Source: an uncultured Bacilli bacterium (GTDB lineage Bacteria; Bacillota_I; Bacilli_A; RF39; UBA660). Taken from it: DNA of 50,513 nt. Below are positions 1-35,244 of the stretch, in pieces (position 1 is the first letter of the stretch; every line of letters begins with the position of its first letter). A model generated the notes under the pieces. It made no database searches and had not been told where the DNA came from. It saw nothing but the letters and a program-made list of their open reading frames with translations. A program made the translations under genes and the position numbers. The DNA is taken from positions 1-50,513 of the forward strand of contig CAJOJR010000014.1 of NCBI GenBank assembly GCA_905235065.1, read 5' to 3'.

Positions 1-2
1 AA

Positions 3-140
3 GTTGCTAAGAAAGAAACTAAAGAAGAAAAAGATTTATCATCTTTAACAGTTGCTGAATTAAAATCTTTAGCTAAAGAAAAAGGTATCAAAGGATACAG
101 TACTATGAAAAAAGATGAATTATTATCATCTTTAAAATAA
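3..140 (+). CDS. rpsB: 3' end of a gene (probably 30S ribosomal protein S2) with a C-terminal Rho_N-like helical domain; partial
   Basis: Frame 3 reads VAKKETKEEKDLSSLTVAELKSLAKEKGIKGYSTMKKDELLSSLK*, a Rho_N-type motif. The rpsB identity is inferred only from its position directly upstream of tsf. Confidence 0.65.
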   Translation, partial: VAKKETKEEKDLSSLTVAELKSLAKEKGIKGYSTMKKDELLSSLK

Positions 141-149
141 GGAGGAATT

Positions 150-1019
150 ATGAATATTACAGCTGAAATGGTTAAAAACCTTAGAGAAATGACTGGTGCT
201 GGTATGATGGATTGTAAAAAGGCATTGGTTGAAACAAATGGAGATATGGATAAGGCTGTTGATTACTTAAGAGAAAAAGGTATATCAAAAGCTGCTAAAA
301 AAGCAGATAGAATTGCTGCTGAAGGTTTATCTAATATCTTTATTGATGGTAATAAAGCCGTAGTATTAGAAGTTAATTCTGAAACTGACTTTGTTGCTAA
401 AAATGCTGAATTCCAAGAATTAGTAGAAAAAATAGGTAAAACTATTTTAAATAGTGATGTTAAATCTGTTGAAGATGCATTAAACTTAACAGTTGATGGA
501 TCTACAAACGATTTAATTGTTGCTGCTACAGCTAAAATTGGAGAAAAACTTTCTTTAAGAAGATTTGAACTTATTACTAAGAAAGATGATGAAGTATTTG
601 GAACTTACTTACATATGGGTGGTAAAATTTCAAGCTTAATAGTATTAAAAGGTGGAAACGAATCAGTTGCAAAAGATATTGCTATGCAAAGTGCAGCTAT
701 GAAACCATCATATGTGTCAAGAGATGAAGTTCCATCTAGTGAAGTTGAACATGAAAGAAGCGTACTTACTTCTCAAGCAATTGAAGAAGGAAAGAAACCT
801 GAATTCGTAGATAAAATCATTGAAGGAAGATTAAGTAAGTATTTTGAAGAAGTATGTTTAGTAGATCAAGCATTCGTAAAAGATTCTGGTTTAACTGTAA
901 AAGCATATTTGTCTCAAAATAATGCGGAAGTTATTTTAATGATTAGATATGAAGTGGGCGAAGGCATGGAAAAGAGAAATGATAACTTTGCTGAAGAAGT
1001 AATGAGTCAAATAAAATAA
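150..1019 (+). CDS. tsf: Elongation factor Ts
   Basis: LREMTGAGMMDCKKAL, EVNSETDFVAKN, RYEVGEG motifs; GGAGG RBS. Confidence 0.99.
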   Translation: MNITAEMVKNLREMTGAGMMDCKKALVETNGDMDKAVDYLREKGISKAAKKADRIAAEGLSNIFIDGNKAVVLEVNSETDFVAKNAEFQELVEKIGKTILNSDVKSVEDALNLTVDGSTNDLIVAATAKIGEKLSLRRFELITKKDDEVFGTYLHMGGKISSLIVLKGGNESVAKDIAMQSAAMKPSYVSRDEVPSSEVEHERSVLTSQAIEEGKKPEFVDKIIEGRLSKYFEEVCLVDQAFVKDSGLTVKAYLSQNNAEVILMIRYEVGEGMEKRNDNFAEEVMSQIK

Positions 1020-27901: not shown

Positions 27902-27915
27902 GCATTTTATTTAAT

Positions 27916-27945
27916 TGACACTAAGAGATAATATGTGATATATTT
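27916..27945 (+). promoter_or_regulatory. Sigma-A-like promoter of the surface protein gene
   Basis: TTGACA-N18-TATATT with an extended TG. Confidence 0.55.
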
Positions 27946-27974: not shown

Positions 27975-30503
27975 ATGAATAATCTAAAAGTTAAACTAGA
28001 TACAAAAATGAAATTTATGATTTTTAGTTTGATTGCTTTTATATTGACTTTGATTACTGCAGCTTATGCATGGGTAACAAGTGATCTTTTAAGTAACTCA
28101 ACAGCTTTATATGTTGGTTCTGTAAGTCTTTCTGTTTTATATAGAGGGACATCCGATGTAATAATAGCAGATTTAGCGCCAGGTGAAAGTGTTACAAAAG
28201 AATTTCAAGTTGAAAATAATGGTTCAAGTGATCAAATTTATAATTTACATTGGATAAATGTTACAAATAATTTAGTAGATAAAAATTATTTTATGTATAC
28301 AATAAGAAATGTAGATACTGATGAAGTATTGTTTTATCCAAAGTATTTGCCAACAAATTCAACCCATATTAAATATGGAATTTCAATACCAGCGGGTGAA
28401 ACTCATAATTACATAATGACTATTTATTATGTTGATGATCCTAAATATAATCAATTGCAAAATGCTGATTTATATTTTGCGGGAGATCTTTCAATAGAGC
28501 AGGGTAGTAATGAGCAAAAGCTAGAAGATAGGTTAAGCATATTTGTAGATGGACAACATAGTGATTATTTACCAACATTATCAGAATATTCAATTGACAC
28601 AACAAGAACTTTTTGTACTGAAGGATCATCAATTTCAATAGTAAATGGTGATCTTGAAATAAGTAATTTATCTGATGTTACTTCATGTGAATTATATTTA
28701 GTTTCAAGCACAGCTGCTTCTATTACAAACGATCCATATAATTTATTAATAATAGATCCAGATGGTGGAACAATGAGTTCTACACCAGAAATTAAATATA
28801 GATATAGTGGAGATATTGTATCACTTGGTGTTCCAGAAAAGAGTGGATATGCTTTTATGGGCTGGCAAGCATCAGGAAGTGGTACACAAATAGTTGATAA
28901 TATTAAAGTTTTGATGGGAAATACTTATTCTTATGTTAAAGCAATATGGGCAGAAGGTCATTGGAATAGGATTGTTCAAACTTGCGGTGAAAATGGAGTA
29001 TCAACTTATACTAGAACATATAAAACTTGTGATTCTTCTATATCAAATTATACACAGACTGATAAAACTTGTGGTGTATCAAGTTGGACTAAAACAACAT
29101 CAGTTTGTGGAATAGCCACAGTCACTAAAAAAACATTTAATTGTGCAGCTTCTGGGTGGTCATATCCTTCAACTGCAAATACAACTGAAACAGCTCAAAC
29201 AGCTACTAATGGTGTTGTACCATCGAATACAACTCAATCTTGCTCATCTGCAAGTCATGTAGGTAATAAAAAAATAACTAATACCACTACAGAATGGCGT
29301 AAGAAGGGTAAAAGGTGTACAGCATCATCATATACATATGATACCAGCACATCATATACATCTACTAATTGTATGAATAGTATTGTAACAGCACCAAATA
29401 CTTGTAGTTCTTCCAATCTAGGAAGTAGTTATATAACTGATTGTAAGCATCATTGTAGACAACCATCTTCTGGAAATAATGGTACTTGTGTTTGTTATTC
29501 GACAGATATGGCTCCTGGTGCTCTTTATGATGCAGGGTGTGTACAAAATGAGTCTAGATGTATGACTGTATGTAGTGGTTTGGGAGGAAGCTTTAGATCA
29601 TATACTCCAAATGACACTTGTGCTTGTCCAAACGGAGGGACTTTAGAAGGTTCTTATTGTTATAAGAAGAATCAAACCTCTTGTTCAACTGCGAATAACT
29701 GGGCTAATATTTATGCAAAAACCACAAAAACATGTACTGCCACAGTGACAATGAGTGATTTCAATAATTTAACAAATGATAATTGTGAAAATAGTGTAGT
29801 AACAGCACCTTCAAGTTGTACTGTAAACAATGTTGGAGACCACATAACTTCTTGCGAAAAAACTAAATATACTAGAAGAACTTATATTTGTGCTGCATCA
29901 AGTTGGTCATATCCTTCTACCGCAGCTACAACTACAACTGTAGCACCTTCGAATTGTAGTGCGACAACTCCATCATGTAGTGCTGCTGGCAATGTTGGAA
30001 ATATTAAGGTAACTTGTGGAGATCCTAAAACATATAATTGGACTTCTTCAACTACATCAACTTCTGCAACATGTCAAACAAGTGGAAGCTGTTCATCTTC
30101 AACAAATGGAAATAGTTATGTAACTGCATGTACTGCAAAAGCATATAATTTTGGAGATGAAACGCCTTCTACAGTTGCTTCTTGTACTCCAAATACTATA
30201 AGTTGTTCATCTTCAACAAACGGACAAGTAAACAGAACTTGTACACCAAATTATAATTATAGTTTATCTTCTACTACACAAACTGATGAAGTAGAATCTT
30301 GTGCAACTTCTAATTTCACTTGTGATTCAACTACTTTTGGAAGTGAGTATACGACACTTTGCCAACCAAAAACGTATGGTTATGGATACTCTTCATCTAC
30401 TACTACTTCAAGCTATTGCTTTGTTGATGAAACTCATGATGCATGTAATGCAAATACAGATGGATCAACTTATACTTATGCTTGTGAATTTGTAGCAGAT
30501 TAA
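27975..30503 (+). CDS. Exported Cys/Thr/Ser-rich surface protein: SipW-type signal, TasA/camelysin-like domain, one Listeria/Bacteroides (Flg_new-like) repeat, 40-Cys nested repeat region
   Basis: Hydrophobic helix ending AYAW; DLAPGESVTKEFQVENNG...YNQLQ; IDPDGG...PEKSGYAFMGW...VKAIW; 40 Cys counted after 28959. Confidence 0.85.
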   Translation: MNNLKVKLDTKMKFMIFSLIAFILTLITAAYAWVTSDLLSNSTALYVGSVSLSVLYRGTSDVIIADLAPGESVTKEFQVENNGSSDQIYNLHWINVTNNLVDKNYFMYTIRNVDTDEVLFYPKYLPTNSTHIKYGISIPAGETHNYIMTIYYVDDPKYNQLQNADLYFAGDLSIEQGSNEQKLEDRLSIFVDGQHSDYLPTLSEYSIDTTRTFCTEGSSISIVNGDLEISNLSDVTSCELYLVSSTAASITNDPYNLLIIDPDGGTMSSTPEIKYRYSGDIVSLGVPEKSGYAFMGWQASGSGTQIVDNIKVLMGNTYSYVKAIWAEGHWNRIVQTCGENGVSTYTRTYKTCDSSISNYTQTDKTCGVSSWTKTTSVCGIATVTKKTFNCAASGWSYPSTANTTETAQTATNGVVPSNTTQSCSSASHVGNKKITNTTTEWRKKGKRCTASSYTYDTSTSYTSTNCMNSIVTAPNTCSSSNLGSSYITDCKHHCRQPSSGNNGTCVCYSTDMAPGALYDAGCVQNESRCMTVCSGLGGSFRSYTPNDTCACPNGGTLEGSYCYKKNQTSCSTANNWANIYAKTTKTCTATVTMSDFNNLTNDNCENSVVTAPSSCTVNNVGDHITSCEKTKYTRRTYICAASSWSYPSTAATTTTVAPSNCSATTPSCSAAGNVGNIKVTCGDPKTYNWTSSTTSTSATCQTSGSCSSSTNGNSYVTACTAKAYNFGDETPSTVASCTPNTISCSSSTNGQVNRTCTPNYNYSLSSTTQTDEVESCATSNFTCDSTTFGSEYTTLCQPKTYGYGYSSSTTTSSYCFVDETHDACNANTDGSTYTYACEFVAD
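29142..30224 (+). repeat. Internal DNA-level duplications within the surface protein gene
   Basis: tggtcatatccttc (~29157 and ~29904); aatagt...gtaacagcacc (~29376 and ~29790); tgttcatcttcaacaaa (~30090 and ~30204). Confidence 0.8.
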
Positions 30504-30513
30504 AGAAACATTT

Positions 30514-30544
30514 AAATAAAGTTAGTAATAACTTTATTTTTTTT
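30514..30544 (+). terminator. Terminator after the surface protein gene
   Basis: aaataaagtta-gtaa-taactttattt plus Ts. Confidence 0.8.
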
Positions 30545-30590
30545 GAAATTAATTAATATTTATACTATAATTAAATTAAGAGGTAATACT

Positions 30591-33114
30591 ATGAAAAGAA
30601 GTAATGTTGATATTAATAAAGTTAGTCCAATGATGAAAGAATATCTTAAAACAAAAAGTGAATATGAAGATACTTTACTTTTCTATAGATTGGGTGATTT
30701 TTATGAATTATTCTTTGAAGATGCAGAAATTGCATCTCACGAACTAGAACTTACTTTAACTGGTAAAAATGCCGGTCTTGAAGAAAGAGTTCCAATGTGT
30801 GGAGTTCCTCATCATGCGGCTAATATATATATTCAAAAATTAGTCGATAAAGGATACAAGGTTGCTATTTGTGAGCAAGTGGAAGACCCTAAAACAGCTA
30901 AAGGAATAGTTAAAAGAGAAGTTATTGAAGTAGTAAGTAGAGGAACTCTTACTAATACTGAAGCTTTAAATGAACATGATTTTAATTTTATTGCAAGTAT
31001 TACAGATAATTTTATTAATTATATTTTTTCTTATGCGGATTTATTAAGTGGTAAAGTATATGCTTGTTATTTATCTCATGATAAAAATAAACTAATTAGT
31101 TATATTAATAATTTAAATATAAAAGAAGTTGTTGTAAATTCTTCATTTGATAAGGAGATATTATTTGAACTTAAAAATAATTATAATGTCTTCATATCTA
31201 TTAATGATAATACATTAGATGGAATATATAATAATATATTCGAGGGTATAAAAGATAATAAATTAATTGAAAATACTAAAGTGGTTATATCTTATTTAAT
31301 CAATAATCAAAAGAAAGAATTAAAGCATTTCCAAAGTCTAGAAATAGTTGATACTAATTTATTCATGGAATTGGGAATTGAAACAGTTAGAAATCTAGAA
31401 TTAGTTGAAACAATTAGAAGTAAAGATAGAACTAACAGTTTATTAGGATTCTTAGATAAAACAAAAACTGCGATGGGAAGTAGACTTTTAAAGAGTTACA
31501 TAATTTCACCATTGTTAAATAAAGATGAAATAATAAGAAGACAAAATATAGTCGAATTATTAATTAAAGAGTTTTTATATAAAAGTGAATTAAAAACTTA
31601 TTTATATGAAATATATGATTTAGAAAGATTAACAGGTAAAATAGTATGTAATAACGTAAATGCTAGAGATTTATTACAGCTTAAAAAGAGTTTAAGTGTT
31701 CTTCCAGATATTAATCTAATATTAAAAGAATTAAATCTAGAAGAGTTAAATACTTTTCCAGAACTTGTTACATTATTAGAAAAATCTATTAATGAAGATG
31801 CACCTCTCTTATTAAAAGAGGGTAATTTAATTAAAGATGGTTATAATAGTGAAATTGATGAATTAAGAAATATTAGAAAAAATGGCAAAGATTTTATATC
31901 TAAATTTGAAAGAGAAGAAATAGAAAGAACTGGAATATCAACTTTAAGAGTTGGATATAACAAAGTATTTGGATACTATATCGAAATAAGTAAAGGACAA
32001 GTAAAGAATATACCTGAAGATTTTAAATATGAAAGAAAACAAACAACGACAAACTCTGAAAGGTATATAAGCCCTTTATTAAAAGAAAAAGAAGATTTAA
32101 TATTAAATGCTGAAGAAAAATTAAATAATCTAGAATATGACATTTTTAATGAAATAAAAGAAGAGATAAAAAAATACATTCATGAATTGCAAGTGGTATC
32201 TTCTAAAATTGCTTTTTATGATGTTATGCAGTCATATGCGACTGTTGCAGAAGAAAATAATTTTGTAAAACCAATATTAAACGAAGAAGGAATCATTAAT
32301 GTAGTTGATGGAAGACATCCTGTTGTAGAAAATGTTATTAAAGATGAATATACACCTAATGATATTAAAATGGATGAAAAAACAAATATATTATTAATTA
32401 CTGGACCTAATATGAGTGGTAAATCGACTTATATGAGAGAACTTGCGATTATAATAATACTTAATCAAATTGGTTCTTATGTACCAGCAAAAGAAGCTAA
32501 CTTACCTATAATTGATAAAATATTTACTAGAATAGGTGCTTCTGATGATTTGGTTGGTGGAGAGTCTACATTTATGGTAGAAATGAAAGAAAGTGCAATT
32601 GCGTTAAAAAATGCTACTAATATTATTTGATGAATTAGGCCGTGGGACTTCCACATATGACGGAATGAGTTTGGCTGGTTCGATAATTGAATATATTGAG
32701 ACAAATATAAAATGTAAGACATTATTTTCAACCCATTATCATGAACTTACAAAGATGGCTGATACATTTGAAGGAATAAAAAATGTACACGTATCTATAT
32801 ATGAAGAGAATGGTAATATTAAATTCCTGCATAAAGTGAAAAATGGAGCTGTTGATAAAAGTTATGGTATAAACGTTGCTAAACTTGCAGATCTTCCTGA
32901 CAAAGTAATCGAAAGAGCTGATGAACTTTTACATAATTATGAAGGGCATCAAAAACGTAAAAAGATTATTAAACAAGTAGAATTAGAATTAATAGAAGAA
33001 AAAGAAAACCCTTTATATGATTTTATTGATAATATTAACCCTAATGAAATAACGCCTATCGAAGCATTAAATTTAATATATGAAATAAAAGGTAAAAGAG
33101 AAGATTTAAAATAG
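30591..33114 (+). CDS. mutS: DNA mismatch repair protein MutS, frameshifted at ~32615
   Basis: [46 protein letters not shown], then after the shift [13 protein letters not shown] and FSTHYHEL. Confidence 0.93.
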
Positions 33115-34950: not shown

Positions 34951-35244
34951 ATGAAAATATTAGAAAAAAGTGATAAATTTGAAGATTTAGTTAAAGAAGG
35001 TATAACACTTGTTGATTTTTATGCTGAATGGTGTGGACCATGTAAGATGATGGGACCAGTTCTTGAGAGTTTAAAAAATATTAATATTATAAAAGTAAAT
35101 GTTGATGAATTTGGAGAATTATCCGAACAATTTAGAATTATGAGTATACCAACATTGGTATTCTTTAAAAATGGAGAAAAAGTAAACGAAGCGGTTGGAT
35201 TTCATTCTAAAGAACAAATTGAAAGTATTATAAAAGAGTTATAA
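34951..35244 (+). CDS. trxA: Thioredoxin
   Basis: VDFYAEWCGPCK, MSIPTL. Confidence 0.97.
   Translation: MKILEKSDKFEDLVKEGITLVDFYAEWCGPCKMMGPVLESLKNINIIKVNVDEFGELSEQFRIMSIPTLVFFKNGEKVNEAVGFHSKEQIESIIKEL

Follow-up and report, generated by a model that had tools for sequence, protein, structure and literature searches.

How does a polypeptide that carries 40 cysteines (Cys) in 514 residues fold? The question is posed by an open reading frame (ORF) at 27975..30503 (+ strand, stop codon included) of contig CAJOJR010000014.1 from an uncultured Bacilli bacterium (assembly GCA_905235065.1), the whole 50,513-nucleotide (nt) stretch of which was analyzed and is referred to here as the window. This ORF encodes P0001, a protein of 842 amino acids (aa) with 42 Cys, and the region of interest is its C-terminal 61%. 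The original prediction, made from the sequence of the window, was that this region is a stalk in which the chain runs out and back, with solitary strands at its beginning completing domains with distant modules at its end. The present analysis leads to a related answer, to which we assign a probability of roughly 0.68: the last 518 residues would form one long, two-armed beta hairpin, the stalk of a secreted protein, with the two arms paired across and a tip at the turn. Overall, sequence comparison across the family and two structure predictors lend good support to this nested, out-and-back reading, and the interpretation offered in the original prediction is partly supported.

Arrangement of cysteines and repeat units

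In the stalk region (residues 329-842, nt 28959-30500), Cys makes up 7.8% of the residues, compared with a mean of 1.0% for the ORFs of the genome, and P0001 is the richest in Cys among the 837 genome ORFs of at least 100 aa. The layout originally described, with 40 Cys, four orphan strands, a 10-Cys tip and four closing modules, was recovered position for position in the P0001 sequence. Two kinds of unit, or tokens, make up the two arms: strands (s; ~12-15 aa, with a single Cys that follows an aromatic residue at a distance of seven positions) and modules (m; ~40 aa, Cys spacings ~19, 7, 13). The strand token resembles a module from which a loop excursion has been removed; both end in a strand whose terminal Cys is preceded by an aromatic residue. 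CxxC knuckles were not found in the strands or modules of the stalk.

All units lie on the + strand, and their limits were taken from the sequence. The outgoing arm opens at 28959..29144 with five strands, s1-s5, of one Cys each (C337, C352, C366, C378 and C390), of which s2-s5 are also seen in the secondary structure assigned by DSSP to an AlphaFold2 (AF2) model; the first four occupy nt 28959-29108, and the fifth, s5, ends at C390. It continues with module E (29145..29282, residues 391-436), which is degenerate and retains only its middle Cys, C423 (the counterpart in the homolog P0002 retains three), strand s6 (29283..29318, ending at C448) and module F (29319..29444; C466, C477 and C490). 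The tip (29445..29684, residues 491-570) contains 10 Cys, at positions 494, 505, 507, 522, 529, 533, 549, 551, 562 and 570, and consists of a mini-domain with a CxC strand and a CxxxC helix (526-535 in AF2 DSSP), followed by a Cys-bounded hairpin motif; the strand and helix are reminiscent of a permuted cysteine-stabilised alpha-beta motif. The returning arm comprises strand s7 (29685..29735, ending at C587), module F' (29736..29855; C604, C615 and C627), strand s8 (29856..29891, ending at C639), module E' or m1 (29892..30017; C661, C668 and C681) and modules m2-m5 (30018..30485, residues 682-837), each with three Cys at Cys-to-Cys spacings of ~19, 7 and 13.

The mirror symmetry attributed to this region holds for the layout of the protein units, but not as a palindrome in the DNA: the segments [s5+E] and [s8+E'] repeat each other directly over 87 nt, with 71% identity. 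The region contains five tandem (a, b, c) triplets of Cys gaps, which goes beyond chance: among 20,000 shuffles of its residues, none had more than 3. A run of four gaps of 11-16 residues, taken alone, is less exceptional and appeared in 544 of the 20,000 shuffles.

Matched numbers of strands and modules in the family

Word-based searches and an exhaustive HMMER search yielded 44 further proteins which, together with P0001, form a family of 45 with a conserved Cys pattern; the stalk is present in 5 of the 301 genomes of the order. Stalks were found on three kinds of N-terminal context: TasA-like, large Flg_new-rich and type IV pilin-like. All 45 sequences were split at each Cys and the tokens were annotated by eye, none being dropped. 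Profile hidden Markov models (HMMs), derived from 151 modules and 123 strands, detect the canonical tokens, and the divergent units s5, E, F' and s8 score near or below zero.

The number of strands equals the number of modules in 44 of the 45 proteins, as had been anticipated for a stalk that gains and loses its units in pairs. The counts range from 2/2 to 13/13: 2/2 and 3/3 were each seen in two proteins, 4/4 in nine, 5/5 in thirteen, 6/6 in ten, 7/7 in four, 8/8 in two (P0001 and P0002), and 9/9 and 13/13 in one each, the remaining protein, P0030, being 4/6. Because many of these proteins are close relatives, they do not represent 45 independent events. Nevertheless, counts differ among proteins of mostly shared sequence, with 6/6 in P0026, 7/7 in P0028 and 5/5 in P0029.

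A stricter rule of order was also observed, whereby one arm, read backwards, is complementary in its tokens to the other. P0001 and P0002 have the order s s s s s m s m, tip, s m s m m m m m. In P0014 the order is m s m, tip, s m s, so that the protein opens with a strandless module and ends with a moduleless strand. P0035 has the order s m12 s12 m (the figures counting successive tokens), P0042 s m5 s5 m and P0043 s m3 s3 m, and P0009, P0010 and P0012 share the order s5 C m followed by s C m5. Variable inserts always lie between the two arms, where they add 4, 6, 8, 10 or 12 Cys or further balanced layers, or are missing altogether; a variable tip at the turn had been foreseen. In the minimal forms, s5 joins m1 directly, with no linker.

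These regularities bear on a simple alternative, a plain linear array of small Cys-rich repeats in tandem, in which the N-terminal strands would form a small beta sheet of their own, the third Cys of a module would bond to a neighbouring module or stay free, and the chain would follow no out-and-back path. Such an array would be compatible with the not very unusual spacing of the N-terminal Cys (the 544 of 20,000 shuffles) and with the unequal counts of P0030. It leaves unexplained, however, the equal counts in 44 of 45 proteins, the orders of the type s m^n s^n m, and the confinement of inserts to the junction of the arms.

A balanced addition can be followed in a pilin-like protein. The genome encodes a pilin-like ORF of 155 aa (contig C25, 28464-28931, - strand) that aligns end to end with the family member P0020 (312 aa), from which it differs solely by one clean insertion of ~160 aa in P0020, a cassette of the form [C] s m tip s m [C]. 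Because this ~160-residue cassette enters a single pilin loop, its ends must meet, as an out-and-back hairpin predicts. At the sequence level, the insertion supports growth by insertion of balanced cassettes, in line with the domain-within-domain growth that had been proposed. Pilin-like counterparts of 312-314 aa carry the 160-aa Cys-rich stalk-and-tip cassette in one loop, and one of them was found in a genome of the same genus.

Predicted structure and pairing of the arms

Residues 325-842 were modeled with AF2 from a 16-row alignment, giving a mean predicted local distance difference test (pLDDT) of 81.7 and a predicted template modeling score (pTM) of 0.35 for the best model; the five models reached 81.7, 80.8, 72.0, 70.5 and 65.3. 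DSSP assigns residues 345-389, which comprise strands 2-5, to a single uninterrupted strand, so that a local meander of these strands is excluded in the predicted model. The linear array, with its separate N-terminal sheet, is at odds with this continuous strand. Two further long strands cross strand-module junctions, one of 31 residues (432-462) and one at 621-645 with a one-residue break, and both argue against compact domains formed by a contiguous strand and module.

The pairing of the arms was read from where the alignments begin and end in small, compact VIA-align matches (41-56 aligned residues). Model range 1..518 joins s1 with m5, ranges 15..476 and 19..475 join s2 with m4, range 31..436 joins s3 with m3 (31..435 in a second-look search), and range 43..400 joins s4 with m2. 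Further in, ranges 70..316, 72..316 and 70..317 join E with s8, ranges 112..307 and 114..312 join s6 with F', and range 130..264, found in many rows and repeated as 129..264 in the second look, joins F with s7; range 175..231 covers the tip alone. The four outer pairs are thus nested in the AF2 model, strand 1 with the last module and so on inward, as predicted. The remaining pair, s5 with E', is proposed from the grammar of the tokens.

These predictions were set against the exact form of the original prediction, in which contiguous, self-contained four-Cys domains (s5+E, s6+F, s7+F' and s8+E') flank the tip, with only the four outer strands and modules split across the arms. The unit of DNA duplication is indeed a strand plus a module, as in the 87-nt repeats of [s5+E] and [s8+E'], the number of Cys is even under this parse too, and no VIA-align row joins s5 with E'. 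However, the AF2 strands at 432-462 and 621-645 run from a strand into the start of the following module and, since such a strand continues unbroken into the next module, it is not folded back on its own module. Furthermore, the compact matches span E+s8, s6+F' and F+s7, and none spans s5+E, s6+F or s7+F', and P0014, with its strandless first module and moduleless last strand, does not fit an array of contiguous domains. We regard contiguous domains around the tip as unlikely; in the model, all layers, and not only the outer four, are probably split across the arms, and the contiguous strand plus module is probably not the folding unit. The bond from a strand Cys to the middle Cys of a module would then link the two arms and not lie inside one unit. 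Of the strand-module units originally described, the pairing of the outer four strands with distant modules thus stands, whereas the contiguous units next to the tip are probably not domains, given the predicted strands of 25-31 residues that cross their junctions.

The outer strands (residues 325-378) and the modules (residues 682-842) were also folded as separate chains with ESMFold2. The result was graded as weak support, with a median score of 0.58 over three runs (0.58, 0.70 and 0.02) and no control out of three above 0.00. In calibration, 58 of 80 solved complexes passed the mark for support, as did 2 of 110 mismatched pairs, but scores of 0.60 or less comprise just 7 of the 80 solved complexes along with both of the passing mismatches. 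Contact agreement between the runs was at least 26%, and partner pLDDT at least 45. The module chain had a pLDDT of 84-86 in the presence of the strands (47 in the run that scored 0.02) compared with 40-42 with an unrelated partner. This loss of confidence is not expected of modules that belong to a linear array, which the ESM Atlas fold, unsuccessful for P0001, would tend to favor; taking the sequence orders and the predictions together, we consider a linear array very unlikely.

That the arms can fold together as separate chains, if only with weak support (0.58 compared with 0.00 for the controls), is also what would be seen if the strand arm of one molecule complemented the module arm of another, producing dimers or polymers, either head-to-tail or antiparallel, in a covalent analogue of donor-strand exchange. 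Matched counts would be needed in this case as well, and the superfamily of the N-terminal domain polymerises via strand donation. Nevertheless, AF2 closes the hairpin within a single chain (pLDDT 81.7), the linker-free junction of s5 and m1 in the minimal forms does not favor exchange, and a cassette within one pilin loop needs both of its ends to meet in one chain. Complementation between molecules therefore appears quite improbable, and a hairpin closed within each chain is the reading that we carry forward.

Proposed disulfide pattern and architecture

In unit E of P0001 the first and third Cys of the module are lost together, both being retained in P0002; module 4 of P0024 has also lost its first and third Cys together while retaining a score of 25 bits with the module HMM. 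These joint losses suggest a bond between the first and third Cys within each module, which fits the C2-C4 bond proposed originally (in a count that starts with the Cys of the strand). The middle module Cys and the strand Cys that remain are equal in number and lie on opposite arms level by level, suggestive of one cross-arm disulfide per level, in which the middle Cys of a module would bond to the Cys of its partner strand on the opposite arm. Under this assignment P0001 would contain 8 cross-arm, 7 within-module and 5 tip disulfides, that is, 20 for its 40 Cys.

With four Cys per layer, the Cys might instead bind metal (Zn or Fe-S) and form no disulfides. The failure to find a Dsb system in the genome (91.7% complete) and the source of the relatives, gut or faecal metagenome assemblies from a low-oxygen habitat, are in keeping with metal binding. 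By contrast, the strands and modules lack CxxC knuckles, the joint loss of two Cys in unit E fits two independent pairs rather than one four-ligand site, and P0001 carries an export signal. Metal binding is, in our view, barely plausible.

The two-armed stalk may then be described as follows. Both arms would be built from the same backbone strand unit in two forms, either the plain s (~12-15 aa, one terminal Cys) or m, the same strand with a loop excursion of ~25 aa bearing two more Cys. Each level of the stalk would take an s from one arm and an m from the other, giving eight levels in P0001, and the hairpin turn would carry a variable Cys-knot tip. Stalk length would change by the gain or loss of one token per arm, and a balanced cassette could enter either at the turn or within a loop belonging to another protein. 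Judged from sequence, the stalk would most likely serve as a rigid spacer of tunable length that keeps a binding tip off the cell or off a TasA-like fibre.

It seems to us an even call whether this represents a new class of protein architecture, namely, a self-complementing beta 'zipper' rod of two tokens with the deepest nesting known (8 levels here, 13 in a homolog), a portable and tunable cassette that reduced-genome gut bacteria without a canonical Dsb system have grafted onto TasA-like fibre and type IV pilin-like proteins and provided with variable Cys-knot tips. If the proposed hairpin holds, it would be a new solution for holding a binding tip off a surface, a rod with a width of two to three strands, in which a single cross-arm disulfide locks each level and length changes in matched steps. 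A simple rule, that strands equal modules and that the arms are complementary, would then apply to any homolog and may guide the design of rigid spacers of set length.

Observations at variance with the stalk reading

Several observations weigh against a nested, disulfide-locked hairpin. The AF2 alignment is shallow (16 rows), and three of the five models have a pLDDT of 65-72. The pairing readout is indirect and the matches behind it are weak (Z 2.7-3.2), no VIA-align row joining s5 with E', a pair derived solely from the token grammar. One of the three split-chain ESMFold2 runs scored 0.02, and the ESM Atlas model of P0001 has a pLDDT of 0.45, with no usable feature match and with template modeling (TM) scores below 0.3 in all structure rows.

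In the family, P0030 is the sole member with unequal counts (4 strands, 6 modules). It differs from P0026 by a clean 28-aa deletion that corresponds to exactly two strands within near-identical strand repeats, so the inequality could be an assembly collapse from short reads, or a real slippage variant and exception. P0024 has 39 Cys, and in one of its modules the first Cys is missing while the third is present. Judgement was required in reading about 8 of the 45 token strings (P0009, P0010, P0012, P0015, P0022, P0024, P0045 and inner units), and a strict automatic gap-and-motif rule gave equal counts in only 17 of 41 proteins, the others being mostly off by one. To these points are added the low-oxygen habitat of the relatives found, which came from gut or faecal metagenome assemblies, the lack of a cell-wall anchor at the C-terminus of P0001 on inspection of the sequence, and the failure of the profiles for DsbA (PF01323), Thioredoxin_4 (PF13462), DsbB (PF02600) and VKOR (PF07884) to find a match in the 91.7%-complete genome (0 matches; the same profiles did match control genomes).

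Oxidative folding capacity

The last result does not bear out the substantial oxidative folding capacity that the original prediction expected of this bacterium; the genome yielded only thioredoxin-like candidates below the family cut-offs. The question is thus how a gut bacterium with a 0.88-Mb genome, in which DsbA, DsbB and VKOR were not found, would form ~20 disulfides in a single exported protein. Cys tends to be avoided in the exported proteins of Bacillota. A cytoplasmic thioredoxin is encoded in the window at 34966-35238. Outside the window, a membrane-anchored thioredoxin-like protein of 144 aa with a CDHC motif (C9:4719-5150; L003:1480-1917, - strand) matches the bacteriocin-maturation disulfide isomerase family PedC/BrcD (E-value 2.6e-9, 37 bits, below the cut-off of 120) and, also below threshold, TrbB (E-value 8.7e-7). 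Its sequence makes this protein a candidate extracytoplasmic oxidase or isomerase. Relatives of it occur in 198 of the 301 genomes of the order, compared with 5 of 301 for the stalk, so that it is widespread in the lineage rather than tied specifically to the stalk. The second candidate, a thioredoxin-like lipoprotein of 151 aa on contig C18, has C-x5-C instead of CxxC and also falls below the family cut-offs; it is directly preceded by a 229-aa exported protein with no family match, the two together lying at L004:662-1806.

Other Cys-rich exported ORFs were found outside the window on contigs C32, C9, C10 and C40. One of 893 aa with 32 Cys contains two copies of a tip-like CxC...CxxxC...GG motif as well as CxxC-type repeats, and the others include ORFs of 548 aa with 27 Cys and of 229 aa with 16 Cys, and a pilin-like ORF of 814 aa with 22 Cys. 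Given several such proteins in one genome, a route to disulfides is likely to be a general need of this bacterium.

N-terminal domains and export

The N-terminal part of P0001 begins with a hydrophobic SipW-type signal, whose helix spans residues 10-37 in the AF2 model, and continues into a TasA/camelysin-like part at residues 24-86 (28044..28232, + strand). The latter matches Pfam PF12389 (Peptidase_M73, TasA/camelysin) with 23.2 bits at a cut-off of 22.5, a partial match limited to profile positions 17-77 of 196. Residues 1-328, modeled with AF2 (pLDDT 77.7, pTM 0.73), have weak Foldseek matches to FimA (E-value 2e-3), archaeal bundling pili (7ueg_A, E-value 6.4e-3) and the TasA fibre (8aur_A, E-value 1.3e-2, TM 0.26/0.35), and also a weak match to a Sulfolobus filament; donor-strand fibre subunits are included among these matches. 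Directly before the stalk lies a domain similar to the Listeria-Bacteroides repeat (Flg_new, PF09479) at residues 261-317 (28755..28925, + strand), with 26.5 bits in P0001, just below the cut-off of 27, which is exceeded in the homologs P0035, P0018 and P0036.

Two genome matches to SipW-type peptidases (TIGR02228) are above the cut-off, with 101.3 and 87.1 bits (contigs C16 and C9), and a prepilin peptidase is also encoded. In the C16 match, the open frame was read through a TAA. At least six small ORFs of 188-233 aa, mostly Cys-free (0-2 Cys) and with TasA-like signals, are distributed over contigs C2, C9, C16 and C25. P0001 scores 14.8 bits against the NCBIfam TasA equivalog NF046066, for which the cut-off is 450, so orthology to TasA is not indicated. 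From these sequence comparisons we read P0001 as a SipW-exported member of the TasA superfamily, but not as a TasA ortholog: it shares with TasA and camelysin the PF12389 match, the SipW-type peptidases, the TasA-like paralogs and the weak fold match to 8aur_A, and differs from TasA in having a stalk.

In P0004-P0007 and P0011, a bare, tipless 5/5 stalk is followed by an additional C-terminal domain of ~260 aa, which matches DUF6273 weakly and below the cut-off (17.7 bits). If the stalk is a hairpin, the additional domain would adjoin the N-terminal domains at the base of the stalk.

Gene and genomic setting

The assembly that carries the window has 878,490 bases in 40 contigs, is 91.7% complete and has a G+C content of ~26%. 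Among sequencing runs, the likely source sample was the only one listed as containing the sequence, and no RNA run was among them. The gene for P0001 lies between relA/spoT and dtd upstream and mutS downstream, and three other genomes have the same order, relA-dtd-gene-mutS. In these genomes the flanking genes are 55-85% identical to those in the window, compared with only 37-46% for the counterparts of P0001; the fast divergence of the stalk gene within a conserved neighbourhood fits a surface protein under selection. The start codon, ATG at 27975, is immediately preceded by a match to a ribosome-binding site (AGGTGA, + strand). A promoter-like site at 27915..27944 (+ strand) combines TTGACA, an 18-nt spacing and TATATT with TG, and is a consensus match only, sites of this kind numbering 21 in the region compared with 22.1 expected from shuffles. 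The downstream mutS is divided between 30543..32630 and 32611..33114, ORFs that overlap but are read in different frames (30543-33114 of the window in all), whereas in relatives (L015 and L016) both parts share one frame; the split may be either a frameshift in the organism or an assembly error.

Comparison with known families and systems

The stalk had been described as unlike any recognised adhesin family, and this description agrees with the searches. No match over stalk residues 325-842 was found in Pfam or NCBIfam at E-values up to 1, either in P0001 or in seven homologs, and the best hit in a sequence search of the PDB had an E-value of 0.063. Foldseek found 0 matches to the stalk model in the PDB at E-values of 1e-3 or less, and VIA-align, run against 48,161 chains, found 0 at Z of 5 or more (best Z 4.0), a second look at the Foldseek matches giving a best Z of 2.7. 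A literature search of limited scope found no paper describing this architecture. By sequence and by model, the stalk thus appears to match no described family or solved fold.

One layer of the stalk, strand plus module, aligns weakly and with noise-range scores with the folds of three-finger toxins, Ly6 proteins and activin-receptor ectodomains: bucandin 1ijc (Z 2.9, root-mean-square deviation (rmsd) 3.5, 41 aligned residues), irditoxin 2h7z (Z 2.7, rmsd 4.2, 45 aligned) and ALK1 4fao_C (Z 2.9, rmsd 3.2, 48 aligned). These folds are made of contiguous chains, unlike a stalk layer, which would be divided between two arms.

The closest analogue in function, although not a relative, is the stalk of streptococcal antigen I/II (P1). 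In antigen I/II, the numbers of N-side and C-side repeats match. According to a published account, the N-side repeats are intertwined with the C-side repeats and project a head from the cell (PMC12701859). One antigen I/II arm is an alpha helix and the other a polyproline helix, neither contains Cys, and the protein has a wall anchor, whereas the arms proposed here are two Cys-stapled arms of beta strands. Neither Ala-rich and Pro-rich repeats of the antigen I/II type nor a C-terminal anchor was found in the P0001 sequence, the stalk region containing 36 Ala and 16 Pro in 514 residues, and there was no Pfam match.

In principle, the closest analogue is Si3, an insertion in the beta' subunit of cyanobacterial RNA polymerase, which two reports describe as elongated and built by recursive insertion from small beta domains that combine distant segments of the chain (PMC10895346, PMC13114784). 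Similarity to domains of the Si3 type (sandwich-barrel hybrid motif, SBHM) is weak for the stalk, with an E-value of 0.58 for 2auj in Foldseek and a Z of 2.4-2.7 over 38-42 residues for residues 217-340 of Thermus thermophilus beta' in VIA-align, and Si3 is an analogue, not a relative. As is proposed for the stalk, the chain of Si3 goes out and back, and small beta domains are assembled from distant parts. Si3, however, is cytoplasmic and disulfide-free, has another fold, and reaches six levels compared with 8 here and 13 in P0035, with no complementarity of two tokens. In a survey of 2.7 million classified domains, the six-level nesting of Si3 is cited as the example of how complex domain organisation can be (PMC13114784). 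If the proposed hairpin is correct, the stalk would extend the nesting of discontinuous domains beyond that published example.

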